Source of the DNA: a virus | IMG/VR virus record: IMGVR_UViG_3300027706_000007 | Span: 30,124 to 94,123 of that record | Direction: 5' to 3' (one strand) | DNA length: 64,000 bases | In this document: positions 42,300 through 61,265 of the stretch, one piece after another | How positions within the stretch are numbered: the first letter of the stretch is position 1 | How the letters are laid out: each line of letters begins with the position of its first letter | Notes under the pieces: generated by a model | Told to the model about the DNA's origin: nothing | The model's input: the letters and a program-made list of their open reading frames with translations, nothing else | Databases searched by the model: none | Program-made: the position numbers and the translations under genes

Positions 42300-43533
42300 G
42301 TGAATGGAATGAAAACGCTAGAAAGGGAATCGAAAAAGGATAATTACCTGTTCGAACTGTGGAAATTCCAGCGCGCGGGAAGAATTTATTACGAACTTGA
42401 TGTTACTGATACTGAAACTGAGAAGAAACAGAAACTTATAGTTCAGTCTCACGGGATGCTGGCCACGTTGGATTTTCTCCATGACTGGGACGTACAGGGG
42501 AGTGTGTGAGGAATGACTGATAAATCATTTCGCGCGAAAACAATAAAATATTACAAGCGATACTGTGGGCAGAAGCAATATTACCGTGATAGTGAAGCCC
42601 TAAAAGATGACCTGAAATTGCTTGAGAGTGATTACGAGCGGTATAAGCGAGATACTGAAACGCCGAGAGATGTACTCGAAGAAATTTTGACCGACACACA
42701 GAACCAAATACAAGCAATGAGACAGCTATTACAAGAAAGAGGTGAGTGAGAAAATGGAGGATATAGACATTTCTAACCTGTCAGCTAGAAAACACACTAA
42801 AAGTATCATACTTGCTGCCTTACAGAATGGAGATAATGTCATAAGAAATGGCCATTATATCGTAAATAATATAGGGATAACAACATACATAAGCTACGAA
42901 CACTTGACTCCCACGGAGTTACGCGCCATTGCAAATTACAAGCAATTTCAAGAACGTGTAAAGAAACACATATACATATAAAGTTCTTGGAGCCGCGTAA
43001 GTAAATTGAATATCGTTACTTACTTCTTGCAACTATTTTTTGTGTTAGTCGTTCTACCATTTGTCATAGCGGGAATCGCTTACGCGCTAGATTATGCACT
43101 CAAAAATTAGCGCGCACGAGTAAAAGTTTTAGTCACCTTTATATATTCATTTAACGTTACGCGCAATATGGAACAAAGAGACCCAGCAAAAAAAGATGAG
43201 ATTGAAATCTCTGTAGTTCACACGCCTCGTCAATTACCAGTGATAAAAATAGGTAAAAGAAAGTACTATATCGACGAGCGTTCTATATATTTCTATACCT
43301 ATAAAACGCCTGATGGGTTAATCCACATCCAAGACATAATAGACACAAGTGATTCACTAATAGGTAAGCATCATGTTTACACACTTGAAGACTTCAAAAA
43401 ATGGAGTAAAAAGATAAACAAAAAGAAGATAATTGATTTCGGAGAAGCTAGTTCCTGCGTTTGCGGTTTAGAAGCCGGAGAGAAAAAACAATATGACGAC
43501 TTCTCGGTGAAATTTAACACGAAAGCGAAATAA
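42300..43533 (+). other. Small hypothetical ORFs (42300, 42513, 42742, 43168)
   Basis: GAGG/GGTGA RBSs and coupled junctions. Confidence 0.6.
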
Positions 43534-43583
43534 AATTTTTTCAGAATCTTTATATACTCGCGAAAACAATATGCGCGCTAGAG

Positions 43584-43913
43584 GTGAACGAAAAAATGAG
43601 AATGAGCGCGACAAAATTTTCGGTTTATGTACCCACGGGGGACGACTTCAACGAACACGCGGACACGTATACTAAGGAGATATCAGAAAAATTCGGTGGC
43701 TGTACCGAAATACCGTTTAACGGGGCATGGATAGACCCCGCGACACATCAAATAGTGCGCGACTTCGGCGTAATTCTCTATACGTACGTGGACGGATTGC
43801 GCGATTCTGAAGCGCGCGAATTTTTCACCCAACTTGCCAACCGCATCAAGACCGAATTAGCACAGCAAAGTGTTCTTATATCTGAAGAACCGGCAAAAAT
43901 AGACTTCATTTAG
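43584..43913 (+). CDS. DUF3574 / SAM-lyase-like PII-fold protein
   Basis: FGGCT...GAWID...V.D...KTELAQQSVL pattern. Confidence 0.55.
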   Translation: MNEKMRMSATKFSVYVPTGDDFNEHADTYTKEISEKFGGCTEIPFNGAWIDPATHQIVRDFGVILYTYVDGLRDSEAREFFTQLANRIKTELAQQSVLISEEPAKIDFI

Positions 43914-43991
43914 GTGCGTTTTTAGGCGCGGTAAATTTTTTAGTAAATTTTATATAGTTCGGTCAACGCTTAGCGCGCGGGAGGTGGAAAA

Positions 43992-44207
43992 ATGGGAAAA
44001 TTGGGTAGAGCCGCGTTGATAACACTCGCGTTCGCCATACTCGCGGCCGCGGTATATTTCGTCGTCCAGTATATCCTTTCACGGATTCCGCCCGAACTCC
44101 TAGACTTGGCACTCTCGCTTATCGCGGTCGGTGTAGTAGTCGGTGAAGTGGCTCTCGTATACGAGAGGAGCCAGAACGTGAAACTCCCGCGATTAGTGAA
44201 GGACTAA
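43992..44207 (+). CDS. Two-transmembrane protein
   Basis: Two hydrophobic helices; GAGGTG RBS. Confidence 0.7.
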   Translation: MGKLGRAALITLAFAILAAAVYFVVQYILSRIPPELLDLALSLIAVGVVVGEVALVYERSQNVKLPRLVKD

Positions 44208-44299
44208 ACACGAGAGAAACCGCGGGCGTGTTTTTTTAGCGCGCCCTAATTTTTTTATTTAGTCAGCTTTATATACGCGATAGTTTGCTATGCGCGCGT

Positions 44300-44524
44300 A
44301 TGATGTATATTTGCGACCGATTCGAACAAACCGCGCAAAAAGCGGTAGAGAATGTACTCGAAGCGATTAAATTAGATGTTACGTTAGACGTTAAAGAGAT
44401 TAAAATAAACGAAAAAGAAAATTCGTTCACGGTTAGCGCGGTAATTAATGGCGCGCCGAAAATTTTAGAAGGCGTGGTTACACGCGAGCGTAAGGGCTGG
44501 TTCGCGCTAATATATGGGTTTTAG
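44300..44524 (+). CDS. Small beta-rich protein, paralogue of 45733-45987
   Basis: Shared 'DV.EI...F.V...NG...L.G..TR..KG' pattern. Confidence 0.7.
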   Translation: MMYICDRFEQTAQKAVENVLEAIKLDVTLDVKEIKINEKENSFTVSAVINGAPKILEGVVTRERKGWFALIYGF

Positions 44525-44593
44525 GCGCGATAAATTTTTCAGCAATATATTTATATAGTTATCAAAGCTAGTGTAAGCAGAGGTGATAAAGGA

Positions 44594-44848
44594 ATGGAAA
44601 GAAAGACATGTGAATGTTGCGGACTCAATAAAGCAACAATATCAGAGTGGCGCGACTTTAAATATGATGGCTATGATGGATATGCAAGAAACTTTAATAT
44701 TTGTTCTAAATGCTTCAATCTAAACAATTACTGGTTTCTCGAACTACTGAACGCAAAGCCAGAGCAAAAAATGAGAGTAATAAAAGCAATGTTCAATGAA
44801 AACAGTACAAAGAAAATTAGGCGCAGGTGGCTAGTGAAAGGTGACTAA
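44594..44848 (+). CDS. Zinc-finger protein
   Basis: CECC...CSKC. Confidence 0.65.
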   Translation: MERKTCECCGLNKATISEWRDFKYDGYDGYARNFNICSKCFNLNNYWFLELLNAKPEQKMRVIKAMFNENSTKKIRRRWLVKGD

Positions 44849-44965
44849 GTGATTGATATTTGAACATTTATCACGAGTGAGTAACCGCGCGTTTTAAGCG
44901 CGTTAAAATTTTTCAGCAAGCTTTATATAGTTTTGGCGCGCTAGGGTTAGCTGGTGAAAAACCAC

Positions 44966-45379
44966 ATGAGCGAAATAGAACAAATCCAGTTATACCGCGG
45001 TGCCGTAAACAACACATGGGTGCGATACGGTCTTTCAGAAGCACTAGTCTATTACGACAACACAGTCAAGCCAGAGAATGAAACAGGATATAAGGCCATT
45101 CTCAGCCAAGACGGGAAAGTCGTGTCAATCGTGAGTAAACGCTACACAGTCATACCACACGCATACCTCAAAGAAAAAGCTCAGTCGTACGGGTTAACTC
45201 TCGTACGTGAACGCGGTGATGATTTATCGCGCTACTGGGAAGGCGACTTCACAATAGCCAAACTACCAAAGAGTGAAGTAAAAATCGGTGATGTAGTGGA
45301 AACACGACTTAAAATCGTCAATTCACTGGACGGGAATAGGGGCCTAAACTTCTTTATGGGTTCTTTCAGACTTGACTAA
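44966..45379 (+). pseudogene. DUF932-family protein, N-terminal half (cut by inversion)
   Basis: VSKRYTVIPH...IVNSLDG...GSFRL, stopping just before the expected VCSNG motif. Confidence 0.85.
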
Positions 45380-45732
45380 AAAATCCGCGCGCTAAAAAAA
45401 TCTACTCACGCAAGTCATCAAGCAACCGCTTGTATTCGTGTAACTCTCTCGTGTACTTTCGTACTAAGGCGCGCCCGATTGTTGTATTGTCGTTTAGCGC
45501 TCTCTCAAGCGCCTTTATTGTCTTCTGTTTCACTCAAGACCTATCCTCCGTTCAGTATATGCTTGTATTATATCTTCACGAATTCGGTCACATATCGCGC
45601 ACGGCCCGTCACATTCCTCACCTGAGATGTGTTCATTCATACTCTCACTCATCTTCTACTTCACCTCAGCACGCGTATCGCTAAAGCATGTATATAAGGG
45701 TGACTAAAAAATTATCGCGTAAAAAATTCACG

Positions 45733-45987
45733 TTAGTCGAATTCTATCTTTTCCAATTCCGCACTCGCAACGTATCCCTTTTTGCTTCGAGTGATTGAAC
45801 CCGTTAAAGTATAGACTTCTCCATTAGCTACTATTGTGACACTGAAGTGTTTATCATTGTCTTGTAGCTGTATTTCACCTACATCAGTGACATCACGCAA
45901 AAATTCAACTCTCCGTAATATGCTGTTTATTGCTTCAAGTGAATCGCGTTCAGGCGTGCTTTCGTAATACTCCGTCATTTTTTCCAC
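45733..45987 (-). CDS. Small beta-rich protein, paralogue of 44300-44524
   Basis: Shares the pattern given for the paralogue; module promoter upstream. Confidence 0.7.
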   Translation of the reverse strand: MEKMTEYYESTPERDSLEAINSILRRVEFLRDVTDVGEIQLQDNDKHFSVTIVANGEVYTLTGSITRSKKGYVASAELEKIEFD

Positions 45988-46038
45988 CGCAAATAAGGCA
46001 CGTGCTAAAGTATATAAACTTGACTAAAAAATCGCGCG

Positions 46039-46245
46039 CTATAAATCGCATATTAACTCTGCGTATGCGTATCCGCTGTACGCGGCGGTGCGTTCACAAT
46101 AATCGCATTCACATCTATGCTTTTGACCGGTGAGCGGAGAGATTATTATCCCATCCTTCAGCGGTGACGGGGGCGTGTCCCATACATCAGAAGGCATTTT
46201 CTTAAAATGTTTCTTACAAACAAATACAGCTATTGTATCTTCCAA
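46039..46245 (-). CDS. Small zinc-finger protein
   Basis: CKKH...CECDYC; module promoter and GCGGTG RBS. Confidence 0.6.
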   Translation of the reverse strand: MEDTIAVFVCKKHFKKMPSDVWDTPPSPLKDGIIISPLTGQKHRCECDYCERTAAYSGYAYAELICDL

Positions 46246-46338
46246 TTTTTCACCGCGAATAAAGCACACGCTAAGGTATATAAGTTTAACTAAAAAATTT
46301 AAGCGCGATAAAAAAATGTGGCGCGCGCCCGCGTTGAT

Positions 46339-46755
46339 TTACGAGCGCGCGATTATTTCAGCTAATACCGCGTGTAATTGCTGTGTGTATGTCGTAGCTG
46401 TGCGCGGCGTGAGGTCTTGATGTGAGGTGTATTCAGTTACTTCATTGAACACATCCCAGAGTGTCGCGTTCGGATTCGTTACGTTTATTTGTCGTTCTGG
46501 GTTCTGTTTCGTTTTGCGCGTTAGTTCTATTGACTTGAATACTTTTGAAGGTAGTGTATTCAGCAATTCGTTCGCAATCTCGGGAGTTATTTGTCGTTCT
46601 GCGAGTTGGCGATAAAATTCGAGTAGTTCGTGCCCCGCTGATTCGGCCTGCGCGATTACTTGCGTGATTATTCCGTCCAATTTGTCGATATTTCCACGGT
46701 GGACTACTGAGGTGGATACGAGTTCATCAGGCGCGACTGCCCCGTTCGAACATAC
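46339..46755 (-). pseudogene. DUF932-family protein, C-terminal half
   Basis: VCSNGAV...VVHRG...TLWDVFNEVTEYTSH. Confidence 0.85.
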
Positions 46756-46784
46756 AAGTTTATATACGCGCTAAAGCGTTACGC

Positions 46785-47072
46785 GTGGTAATGAGCCAAA
46801 ACGTGAACGGGATGGAAATGCGCGCGGAAAACGCGCAAGTGATTAGTGCCACTGATGAAGCACTTACACAAATACGTACGCGCCACGCAGATATAATGCA
46901 GGATGTTCGGTTCGAAAAGGGGTCAACCGAGTGTATCTTACGCGTTTATCCAGCGAGACGCGATAAGATAATCACGGGTGTCGTACTCGAAATCTTGTAT
47001 GGTTATGGCTACATGCTGGTGTCCGTGAATCTTAAGCGGGGTGGATACATCTTACTGCTAAAGAAAGCCTAA
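46785..47072 (+). CDS. Hypothetical protein whose promoter is cut at the inversion boundary
   Basis: Keeps TTTATATA but has lost the upstream T-run/AGT part of the module. Confidence 0.65.
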   Translation: MVMSQNVNGMEMRAENAQVISATDEALTQIRTRHADIMQDVRFEKGSTECILRVYPARRDKIITGVVLEILYGYGYMLVSVNLKRGGYILLLKKA

Positions 47073-47078
47073 GCAACT

Positions 47079-47181
47079 TTCCAGTGGAAACGCTGGTCGC
47101 GCTCGCGGATTTCCAGTGCCGCGGGGGCGAAAGCTTTATATACCCCATACGGGGGGCGAGCGCGAGCGAAAGCTTTATATA
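47079..47181. promoter_or_regulatory. Candidate replication origin / regulatory region with an ORB-like box and direct repeats
   Basis: TTCCAGTGGAAAC, a second TTCCAGTG followed by a G-string, and GCGAAAGCTTTATATA twice. Confidence 0.35.
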
Positions 47182-47406: not shown

Positions 47407-47637
47407 ATGAAAAAAACGTCATGTGAGCATTGCTGGCACAGTTTTGTGACCGAAGTTGTAAGATATGGGAAGAATATACATGGCCCTTTTTGTGTGTCCC
47501 ATCCGGAAGCAAAGAGAGTCCATGAGCATAATTTTTTACTTCATAAAAAGAAATGCTGCAAATGCGGCATAGGCAAAGTACTTTACGAAGATTACATTGA
47601 CCCGGGAGAACCGAACGAGTATGCATATACAGTATGA
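47407..47637 (+). CDS. Cys/His-rich small protein
   Basis: CEHCWH...CCKCG. Confidence 0.6.
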   Translation: MKKTSCEHCWHSFVTEVVRYGKNIHGPFCVSHPEAKRVHEHNFLLHKKKCCKCGIGKVLYEDYIDPGEPNEYAYTV

Positions 47638-48639
47638 AATTAATCACCGGCTCCGCGATGTGTACGAGAACGCGACCGCGCAAATGGAATCTAACCGCGC
47701 GCTTTATAGAACCATACTCGAATACAATTTCGAAGAATTGGGAACTGTGGGAGAGATTGATACAACTATTTTTATGTCTATTCGAAATGCGGTGGATGTA
47801 CACGATTCGAGAGTAGCTTGGATTTCTTTCCTCTTCTAAATTTTAAGAATTCTTTTTATATACGCGATTTACCTAAGTGAGCGTGCCCGAGTGAATATGA
47901 ATATACATCGGAAGATTAATAGAAGTCTCACTAATGTATGCCACAGTGAGAGAGAGCGAATGATACATAATAGATACACTATTTTTCATACTTTGTCCAG
48001 ATATGACTTTATGGGAATCGATGCCGTAGGGGAAATTGATAACGGCAGTTTTAGGCTTGTCCATGACCCAAGATATATACGCGATGAAAAAATAATTTGG
48101 ATTTGGCTGCTTTAACTTTTTAAGAATTCTTTTTATATATGTGCGATATATCCGAGTGAATATGCGCATCCGTCAGAAGATTAATAATAAACTCCGCGCT
48201 ATGTGCGTTAGTGAGGGCGAGCAAATTGAAGATGATGTTAGACTCGCGTTTTATTGTATTTTAGGCAGATATAACTTCGAAGGTCTTAATACCATAGGGG
48301 AAATTAATAGAGCCGTTTTTATAACTACCTCCAAACCCCGTATGTATTTATACGATGAAAAAATAGCTTGGATTTGGATGTTTTAAATTTTTATATTTTA
48401 AGGAATCCTTTTATACACGCGGGGCGCGCCCAGACGGTATGTATATACGTTGGAAAATTCATCACTGTCTTGAGTCCATGTATAATAATGCGGATGTGAG
48501 AATGAAATCTAATTTTACGTTTTATAAAACTGTCCTCAAATATAATCTGGTGGAGTTCGAAGTCGCGGTAGACATCGATGACGGTCTTTTCAGGACTATT
48601 CACAATGTGAGAGATTTAAATGCTGACTATTATTTCTGA
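47621..48639 (+). other. Four tandem paralogous ~70-aa ORFs (47621, 47897, 48162, 48439)
   Basis: MxIxxKINxxL...YNF...GEID motif. Three are preceded by a TTTTAAG(G)AATTC/CCTTTTTATA-type promoter. Confidence 0.8.
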
Positions 48640-59804: not shown

Positions 59805-61265
59805 ATGAACTTTTTCTCACTCTCGACTGAGTATAGCGCGGGTATCGCTCCCGCAATTTCGCAAAAACAATATACCGCGCTGATAGATGCATACAAACGC
59901 ACAGGAAAATTCCCTCCCGTTCTGAGAATTGGTGGGGTTGCAGTTGATGCGAGCGAAAATGGGAATGGCTGGCGTATCAAAAAAGACGATTTAAAGAAAG
60001 TTGCTAAGGCACTTAAAGGCGTTCAGATTCGAAAGAATCACTCGGATAACGTAGACGATATAATTGGGCGCGTAAATCATGCGTGGGCAGAAAATGATAA
60101 AGTATTTTTCGAGGGCGAAATAATCGACCATCCAAATAATCCAATAATTCCAAAAATTTTGCTCGGATATGTGAAATTTAGCTCGATTCAAATCACTACA
60201 GATAAAGTTTACTGCGCATATTGTTTGGATAATGGACTGGTAAAAGAGGAAGAGGAAGCGCGTTTGCATGAAGACGATATTGTATGTCCGCGGTGTGGAC
60301 GTTTCAAAGTTGAAATACGCGACCCAACAGTATTGGAACAAAGTCTTGTTTCAATGCCCGCGTATTCGGAAGCGGTATTTCATCCGCTCGGTTTCAAAGC
60401 CGCGCTAGATAAGGCCGTGCAAGAAAAACTTAAATATATCCCGCAAAATAATAATATTCAATATGAAACTACTCGCGCTAGGAGTTCGGGTAGCGGATTT
60501 TCTTTCTCCGCAAAAAGCGATATGAGTAATTCAAGTACTGCTGCTCCTTCTGGTGTTATATCGGAAGGCGGCAATCTGAGTTACGATAAGGTTATCGCGC
60601 GCATGGAAAGTCTTTCCAACAAGCTGGATTCGGCTATCGAAAAGCTGGCCTCTATAATGGAGACTCAGTATGGGCCGCTTCCAGAAGGTAAGGACTCTCT
60701 AGAGAAGGCGCGGAAAGCTGCGCTAATGGCACGGAGAAAAGCGTTGCGAAATGAAGCTAGACGCGTAAAAGCTGCTTTGAAGAAGCTTGAGGAAGATGAA
60801 GACGAAGATGAGGATGAGGATGAAGATGACGAAGATGAAGTCAAGTCCCGTAAGAAAGAAGTCAGACATGTAATGCATGAAGAAGACGAAGATGAAGACG
60901 AGGACGAAGACGAAGATGAAGACGACGAAGATGAAGCATCTTCCAAGAGGAAGTCAAAGAAAGAAGAAGATGAAGATGAGGACGATGAAGCAGCTAAACG
61001 CAAGCTAGTTGAGGAAGCGAAGCGCAAATTTGAGGAAATCAAGACAAGAATCGCAACTGCTAAGAAGAAGATGGCCGAAACCCAGATGGCTACATTGGCT
61101 CAGGGTAAGGGTAATGTCGGCGAGATTCGGGGCGATGTTCAGAAGTCAGCAACCGATGCTCTCGTTGACAAGTATCTGAATCCTGACAGTCAGCCACCTT
61201 CACCAGTACTTCAGGACTTGCTGAAAGCTTCTGAATATTGGAAGGGTATGAGGTACTTCTCCTAA
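59805..61265 (+). CDS. Prohead protease fused to an acidic coiled-coil scaffold
   Basis: NGNG, NH...IIGRV and EQSLVSMPAY motifs; Asp/Glu runs; immediately upstream of the cement and capsid genes. Confidence 0.85.
   Translation: MNFFSLSTEYSAGIAPAISQKQYTALIDAYKRTGKFPPVLRIGGVAVDASENGNGWRIKKDDLKKVAKALKGVQIRKNHSDNVDDIIGRVNHAWAENDKVFFEGEIIDHPNNPIIPKILLGYVKFSSIQITTDKVYCAYCLDNGLVKEEEEARLHEDDIVCPRCGRFKVEIRDPTVLEQSLVSMPAYSEAVFHPLGFKAALDKAVQEKLKYIPQNNNIQYETTRARSSGSGFSFSAKSDMSNSSTAAPSGVISEGGNLSYDKVIARMESLSNKLDSAIEKLASIMETQYGPLPEGKDSLEKARKAALMARRKALRNEARRVKAALKKLEEDEDEDEDEDEDDEDEVKSRKKEVRHVMHEEDEDEDEDEDEDEDDEDEASSKRKSKKEEDEDEDDEAAKRKLVEEAKRKFEEIKTRIATAKKKMAETQMATLAQGKGNVGEIRGDVQKSATDALVDKYLNPDSQPPSPVLQDLLKASEYWKGMRYFS

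Follow-up and report, generated by a model that had tools for sequence, protein, structure and literature searches.

The window analysed here, 64,000 nucleotides in length, comprises bases 30,124-94,123 of the linear 94,123-bp IMG/VR record IMGVR_UViG_3300027706_000007, for which CheckV gives a completeness of 68%. Portal, capsid, tail tube and terminase proteins were identified in a Pfam scan of 89 open reading frames (ORFs) of at least 100 amino acids (aa), along with a family B polymerase, PriX, an RNA ligase and a LAGLIDADG domain, while the nucleases recognised by Pfam in the record include ERCC4, PD-(D/E)XK and two Metallophos proteins. Successive genes are preceded by a TTTATATA-type box and an upstream BRE-like element, as in archaeal BRE/TATA promoter modules; the TTTATATA boxes were located by a module scan at 22-38 nt 5' of the start codons, and a GGTGA-type ribosome-binding site is frequent. 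'Uroviricota' was the sole assignment returned for the polymerase by an ESM Atlas look-up, and tblastn searches of the INPHARED phages produced no match to either the 486-aa ORF at 59805-61262 or the C-terminal half of the DUF932 gene described below. Judged from its sequence, the record probably represents an archaeal tailed virus.

The locus under study contains two halves of a DUF932 (PF06067) gene on opposite strands, between which lie four small cassette genes (g1 to g4) and several of the nine promoter modules (numbered up to M9) of the restored orientation. The arrangement in the window is termed I1, the intact arrangement R and a second inverted form I2. The features are as follows.

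44909..44929, plus strand: promoter module M5 (TTTTTCAGCAAGCTTTATATA), ahead of the DUF932 gene and untouched by the inversion (module scan, sequence).
44966..45379, plus strand: N-terminal half of DUF932, codons 1-136 followed by Asp and a junction-made stop (Pfam PF06067 positions 3-87; equals residues 1-136 of protein P0029).
45370..45374, plus strand: left copy of the 5-bp crossover core, ACTTG (sequence).
45375..46754, no strand assigned: inverted segment of allele I1, 1,380 bp, with four cassettes and their own modules plus the 3' half of DUF932 (in-silico flip).
45375..45400, minus strand: upstream half of M9, moved to the left junction, with T-run terminator, GCGCGC, TTTTTTAGT and the left arm of a 9-bp stem (sequence, module scan, folding).
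45402..45533, minus strand: cassette gene g4, 43 aa (exact protein public as P0037 and P0038).
45530..45652, minus strand: cassette gene g3, 40 aa, with a CxxC motif (public as P0039-P0042, SNP variants among them).
45691..45711, minus strand: promoter module M8 (module scan).
45733..45987, minus strand: cassette gene g2, 81-84 aa, a paralogue of ORF 44285-44524 (BLASTP, 32% identity, E 4e-11).
46011..46031, minus strand: promoter module M7, with the same 21-nt core as restored M9 (module scan).
46039..46269, minus strand: cassette gene g1, a Cys-rich small protein (ORF list).
46277..46297, minus strand: promoter module M6 (module scan).
46339..46755, minus strand: C-terminal half of DUF932, codons 137-274 and stop (Pfam positions 88-216; equals residues 137-274 of P0029).
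46453..46454, minus strand: gene-side crossover of allele I2 (AT, after codon 237), which is carried by another contig as protein P0001 (exhaustive join scan).
46755..46759, plus strand: right copy of the crossover core, CAAGT (sequence).
46755..46775, plus strand: downstream half of M9, which stays put, with CAAG, TATA box TTTATATA and right stem arm CGCGCTAAA (sequence, module scan, folding).
46764-46765: I2 crossover within the M9 TATA box (join scan).
46791..47072, plus strand: ORF served by M9, 93 aa from ATG or 95 aa from GTG at 46785 (exact protein P0030 on five contigs).

At the left junction the plus-strand ORF 44966-45379 ends in GSFRL, followed by D and a stop codon, while at the right junction the minus-strand frame from 46755 opens with VCSNGAV and encodes 138 residues before its stop codon (46339-46341), its first start codon being a TTG at 46680. 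These are the half-ends that the earlier note had placed at an ACTTG core, and both could be read from the junctions. Replacement of 45375-46754 by its reverse complement in silico produces a single 274-aa DUF932 ORF, as had been predicted, and the public proteins P0029 (274 aa) and P0027 (278 aa) match it letter for letter. The two halves are also complementary in the Pfam DUF932 profile, with the N-terminal half covering positions 3-87 (20.6 bits, on its own under the cut-off) and the C-terminal half positions 88-216 (35.8 bits; cut-off 23), and since positions 87 and 88 are continuous across the halves the cut leaves no seam in the profile. Through the same flip, ...GGATTTTTTAGT is brought up against CAAGTTTATATACGCGC, which rebuilds the 21-nt M9 core TTTTTTAGTCAAGTTTATATA before ORF 46785/46791; the claim that this core would be identical to the copy at 46011-46031 proved correct, with 0 mismatches. 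In the restored orientation nine modules are present, where chance would yield none in the module scan, although their promoter role is predicted. All nine lie on the plus strand, and the interval 43,125-46,766, which contains a tandem array of eight, has each of its cassette genes on that strand too, in line with the expectation that the internal genes would be brought onto the strand of their neighbours.

The crossover sites share ACTTG (45370-45374) and CAAGT (46755-46759), the 5-bp inverted core claimed previously, and their exact identity does not extend beyond it. An identity of at least 5 bp was reached in 0.7% of 200,000 random breakpoint pairs in the same sequence. Both reciprocal junctions are contained in the window and no base has been gained or lost at either, and among the 25 longest inverted repeats listed there is none at the 45370/46755 junctions beyond the 5-bp core.

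The earlier note had proposed related genomes as a check on the inversion, and public proteins indeed hold R, I1 and a second inversion form, I2. A protein search with the C-terminal half of DUF932 against 1.84 billion representative proteins led to P0001, which is 246 aa long and 99% identical, includes the C-terminal half from residue 137 and carries a precomputed PF06067 annotation. The 90%-identity cluster of P0001 has seven members, identical over every overlap, as follows.

P0024, 137 aa: I1, truncated (GSFRLD); two contigs, from JGI/IMG and ENA, the longest being the 94,123-bp record.
P0025, 141 aa: I1, truncated; 7,204-bp NCBI/Logan contig.
P0028, 141 aa: I1, truncated; 24,469-bp JGI contig.
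P0026, 113 aa: C-terminal half called from TTG; 5,980-bp JGI contig.
P0027, 278 aa: R, intact; 1,641-bp JGI contig.
P0029, 274 aa: R, intact; source label SRC.
P0001, 246 aa: I2, the third form; 93,918-bp ENA contig.

Since P0027 and P0029 equal the in-silico restoration, the R arrangement exists in nature, and with this intact ancestral arrangement still found among public proteins, I1 represents the derived state. P0001 is intact to residue 237 (...ATLWD) and then continues as INLTKKSAR to a stop. In an exhaustive scan of junctions linking the restored gene to the reverse-complemented M9 region, the 246 residues of P0001 were reproduced in full only by joining restored positions 45674-45676 with 46765-46763. 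In I2, codon 237 is thus joined to reverse-complemented M9 at a microhomology of 2 bp (AT), the crossover in M9 being situated approximately 6 nt from that of I1. As I2 needs an intact M9, R must have been its parent, and the event was independent of I1. The I2 contig (93,918 bp) and the 94,123-bp record are nearly equal in length, suggesting that I2, of which one junction is documented, is likewise a balanced inversion. Its reciprocal junction would consist of the reverse complement of codons 238-274 and ...ATACGCGC ahead of ORF 46791; the predicted 37-aa fragment is not in the protein collection, possibly being too short to be called, and separate protein clusters contained no further truncated or hybrid DUF932 forms. 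Taken from the junctions and protein sequences, there are two independent inversions from the intact state, both of which share M9 and both of which break DUF932. Clusters of the neighbouring genes place the virus on further contigs of 75,899, 11,324, 5,225, 5,018 and 2,691 bp, and since g2 or g3 differs by single residues on some of these, the sampling extends to several natural populations.

The I1 form ending in GSFRLD and a stop occurs on at least four contigs (sources JGI, ENA, NCBI and Logan), and this bears on the suggestion, made in the earlier note, that the inversion might be an amplification chimera. If only the intact arrangement existed in the virus itself, I1 and I2 would be inverted microhomology chimeras that formed on amplification or in library preparation and were carried into the assembly. 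Inverted junctions between neighbouring sequences at 2-5 bp of microhomology are a typical signature of multiple-displacement amplification, and template switching in vitro might be encouraged by the hairpin propensity of M9. However, the reciprocal junctions of I1 are complete, at exactly complementary positions without loss or gain, and the truncated form recurs in four independent data sources beside SNP-variant populations. Furthermore, a rare chimera would not form the main path of 94-kb and 24-kb contigs, and k-mer assemblers cannot join sequences at a 2-5-bp overlap without junction-spanning reads. An artefactual origin is therefore considered very unlikely.

The M9 module differs from the remaining modules in its predicted structure. 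When restored, it contains a perfect 9-bp GC-rich inverted repeat (TTTAGCGCG / CGCGCTAAA) with a 25-nt loop formed by the T-run/BRE/TATA core, and the crossovers of both I1 and I2 fall inside this loop. Its predicted DNA folding energy of -10.2 kcal/mol for 71 nt is the strongest of the nine modules (-2.5 to -8.6 kcal/mol for the others) and places M9 within the bottom 3% of windows genome-wide, although with a loop of 25 nt the extrusion of the modelled hairpin in vivo is uncertain. M7, with the same 21-nt core and weaker flanks, was used in neither event. On the gene side, I1 is cut inside R135-x-x-C138-x-N140-G141 and I2 inside W236...N240...T243, corresponding to the two most conserved DUF932 motifs (R..C.NG and W..N..T), which are invariant and common to 19 homologues; no convincing common motif or hairpin was evident when the two gene-side breakpoints were compared. 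M9 is located approximately 310 bp upstream of an ORB-like TTCCAGTGGAAAC box, which is a possible replication origin. With the segment inverted as in I1, its modules form imperfect inverted repeats of 21-38 nt with M4, M5 and a module-like spacer at approximately 44,530, and such repeats could seed further rearrangement.

With a microhomology of 5 bp in I1 and 2 bp in I2 between otherwise dissimilar sites, the events have the properties of short-homology inversions. I1 is a real, recent and exact inversion allele that inactivates DUF932, and on balance it probably arose as a conservative event of this kind at a fragile or selected site, being neither an invertase switch nor a chimera. The ancestral R arrangement would have consisted of tandem small gene cassettes on one strand, each preceded by a terminator/GCGCGC/BRE-TATA module, and M9 would have been the last module of this array. 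A single conservative reciprocal exchange within the 5-bp identity, between DUF932 codons 136/137 (ACTTG) and M9 (CAAGT), would have flipped the intervening 1,380 bp through short-homology (illegitimate) recombination or strand switching, without a dedicated invertase. M9 may have been favoured because no other module of the array can extrude so strong a hairpin or cruciform, the loop of which would carry the AT-rich BRE/TATA core. Recurrence would then reflect a hot spot at M9, the tolerance or selection of inversions that disable DUF932 or flip the four cassettes, or both. The earlier note had offered a one-off microhomology inversion among its explanations; it appears to have been right as to the kind of event, but not as to its singularity, given that I2 (P0001) joins another point of the gene to M9. 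HUH/Rep-type nicking at ACTTG|A, a site similar to CTTG|ATA, at which rolling-circle replicons are nicked, was also considered and rejected, since I2 uses another position and no Y1 transposase was found in the 94-kb record.

The exactness of I1 is a difficulty for the short-homology explanation, as a conservative exchange in which both cores are kept without an indel is more typical of site-specific enzymes, and a recombinase of the host, or one encoded in the missing third of the 68%-complete genome, may be conceived of. This leads to the intragenic ON/OFF switch that the earlier note had offered among its explanations. In such a programmed and reversible system, a recombinase or structure-specific nuclease, encoded by the host or in the missing third of the viral genome, would act on the M9 hairpin and loose DUF932 sites, toggling DUF932 ON and OFF and, by way of bet-hedging, reversing the direction of g1-g4. 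In its favour, public data contain this virus in three arrangements whose protein sequences are 100% identical; M9 is common to both inversions and structurally unlike the other modules; the cuts fall in the two most conserved DUF932 motifs; and illegitimate joining is seldom as perfectly conservative as in I1. The sites themselves, however, do not resemble those of an invertase. Inverted repeats of the invertase type (about 10-30 bp or more) do not bound the segment, the flanks of the 5 shared bp are without binding-site symmetry, and the core position is not constant, the I2 crossover being displaced by approximately 6 nt and sharing only AT with its partner, unlike any site-specific system. 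The earlier note had advised looking for an invertase beyond the window, but in the whole 94,123-bp record (68% complete) there was no match at E<=1 to PF00589 (Phage_integrase), PF00239 (Resolvase), PF16795 (SSV-type integrase), the Y1 transposase or the TnpB zinc-ribbon domain, so that none of the five families is represented. Contigs of approximately 94 kb were moreover assembled through the I1 region, and in the I2 form through at least the left junction, from which one orientation seems dominant per sample. The data thus do not support the proposed switch, including its supposed bet-hedging role, and we regard it as unlikely.

A related proposal dispenses with the recombinase. Recombination would be focused on the M9 hairpin module as an inherent hot spot, where a viral structure-specific nuclease cuts or the nearby origin causes stalling, so that inversions into the neighbouring DUF932 gene arise again and again. 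The locus would then be a recombinase-free contingency locus through which an archaeal virus population maintains DUF932-ON and DUF932-OFF lineages, the latter being of use where, for example, possession of DUF932 is a disadvantage in the face of a host defence. This is judged to be rather unlikely. The clustering at M9 rests on two events, and part of it could reflect which inversions are viable: as the end of an inversion must fall in an intergenic spacer, viability may explain some of the coincidence. Another explanation is selection without any hot spot, whereby rare random inversions would occur everywhere and the survivors would be those that flip g1-g4 or disable DUF932 while sparing essential genes, with M9 as the only permissive spacer. 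I1 and I2 each disable DUF932 and flip the same four cassettes, their right end is confined to a spacer of approximately 85 bp if g4 and ORF 46791 are to be spared, and the other cassettes retain intact promoters. The spacers of M6-M8 and those further downstream would, however, be equally permissive, and M7 has an identical core, yet M9 was used twice; the 5-bp microhomology of I1 likewise points to a homology-guided event. Selection alone therefore appears improbable, and it overlaps with the short-homology, fragile-site explanation rather than excluding it.

The consequences for gene expression differ along the locus. The earlier note had envisaged the inversion as controlling two genes at once, which is borne out only by half. 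For the first of these the reading frame leaves a clear verdict: DUF932 is knocked out in I1, cut within its invariant R-x-x-C-x-N-G motif, with a C-terminal half that has no promoter-proximal start codon. The second, ORF 46785/46791, retains its complete TATA box TTTATATA together with CAAG, the four proximal bases, but loses the T-run/AGT upstream part, including TTTTTTAGT and the upstream terminator. I1 may alter the expression of this ORF, probably without abolishing it, whereas the I2 event would destroy the TATA box of ORF 46791. The g1-g4 genes keep M6-M8 and the T-run terminator after g4 in I1, and now converge on the DUF932 stub, which is without a T-run after its new stop, making antisense read-through into g4-g1 possible. 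To our knowledge, DUF932 is widespread in phages, plasmids and integrative elements, and we know of no role for it. A confident AlphaFold model was obtained (pLDDT 87, pTM 0.80), for which Foldseek returned no match in the PDB at E<=0.001, and the top VIA-align Z score, 7.4, did not rise above the values given as noise. A PDB sequence-profile search with DUF932 was likewise without a match, and in the literature located the family is named outside titles and abstracts only.

For uncultured archaeal viruses, structural polymorphism is hardly ever described at single-base resolution, and here one virus is visible in three defined arrangements, the ancestral form and two independent inversions. 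Should M9 be a true hot spot, promoter/terminator modules with cruciform potential would shape archaeal viral gene order, and the alleles would amount to a natural knock-out series for DUF932. Should the inversion be a mere lineage marker, the apparent pseudogene in the IMG/VR record would still stem from inversion and not from decay. For annotation, the two DUF932 fragments are to be treated as one gene.

The mechanism favoured here would have its nearest analogy in the recA-independent or illegitimate inversions between very short inverted repeats that have reportedly been described in E. coli plasmids and explained by strand-switching models, and in microhomology-mediated inversions. These have in common with I1 an inverted identity of a few bp, the absence of recombinase sites, a partner 1.4 kb away, a heritable allele and the possible involvement of secondary structure. 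The present case departs from them in being reciprocal at 5 bp, in its repeated use of a single promoter hairpin, each time with another partner, and in occurring in a probable archaeal virus, and the mechanistic likeness is suggested by analogy. In the haloarchaeal myoviruses phiCh1, phiH1 and ChaoS9, a tail-fibre region is said to be inverted by the tyrosine recombinase Int1, reportedly between clusters of long repeats in two convergent tail-fibre genes with the integrase between them, generating functional variant proteins. As in the virus studied here, the inversions of these archaeal tailed viruses end within genes and produce several arrangement variants, whereas in I1 and I2 DUF932 is destroyed, the partner site is a promoter and no integrase was found. 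The intragenic invertons and gene-altering inversions of bacteria are flanked by recognisable inverted repeats (11-nt in a validated example) and have been attributed to invertases (bioRxiv 10.1101/2023.03.11.532203; PMC9881135). They share with I1 an end inside a coding sequence that leads to a premature stop, as well as alternative orientations in nature, but differ from it in that the repeat here is of 5 bp, a second event used another crossover and no invertase was found in 94 kb. Finally, as in the promoter switches fimS/FimBE, Hin and the Bacteroides capsule promoters (PMC10403206), a promoter element is among the re-oriented parts, but unlike in those systems the promoter is here cut in two, and its TATA box stays with the gene.

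In the inverted state of the window's allele I1, in which 45375-46754 is flipped and the DUF932 gene is cut between codons 136 and 137, imperfect inverted repeats of 21-38 nt (72-86% complementary) arise in the small-gene cassette array. One arm of each is a flipped promoter module (M6-M8), and the other is M4 or M5, both on the plus strand, or a spacer near 44,530 that resembles a module.

Arms of the imperfect inverted repeats in the inverted state
Left side: 44231-44276, 44519-44555, 44892-44933; plus-strand modules M4 and M5 and the spacer at ~44,530
Right side: 45690-45726, 46007-46032, 46277-46316; flipped modules M6-M8

These repeats are candidate substrates for secondary inversions. 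The array also contains paralogous ORFs at 44285-44524 and 45733-45987 (g2, minus strand), which share 32% identity (E 4e-11), indicating that cassettes have undergone duplication within it.

A distant DUF932 relative with 34% identity, P0006 (151 aa), is encoded on a JGI contig of 1,299 bp. Its N-terminus reads LICQNGAV..., and its first residue is exactly the Leu preceding the I1 cut in the window's DUF932 protein, a coincidence with a chance of ~1 in 300; P0006 is most likely a gene truncated by the end of its contig. Among the flipped cassette genes, the g3 stop overlaps the g4 start at 45530-45533, and the g3 variant P0041, from a 75,899-bp JGI contig, carries five additional residues (WNRRQ). 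This extension is consistent with mutation of the g3 stop from TGA to TGG; such a change would alter residue 2 of g4 as well. A T31A substitution in g2 and an Ala-to-Glu substitution in g3 are present on other contigs, so the variation is strain-level diversity within one virus.

Downstream of M9, the module split by I1 and inferred inversion hot spot, TTCCAGTGGAAAC is followed 20 nt further on by TTTCCAGTGCCGCGGGGG (47079-47135; ~310 bp from M9). The TTCCAGTGGAAAC element may represent an Orc1/Cdc6 ORB-like box, and if this region is an origin, its proximity to the hot spot may matter. Directly past the array, tandem small ORFs (47597-48639; ~66-81 aa) share a ...Y-N/D-F...G-E-I-D... pattern and have a promoter type distinct from that of the cassettes. 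Pfam matches across the whole record include a LAGLIDADG_3 domain in one viral ORF and Ribosomal_S2 in another (E 1.3e-09); a ribosomal protein S2 homologue is unusual for a virus.
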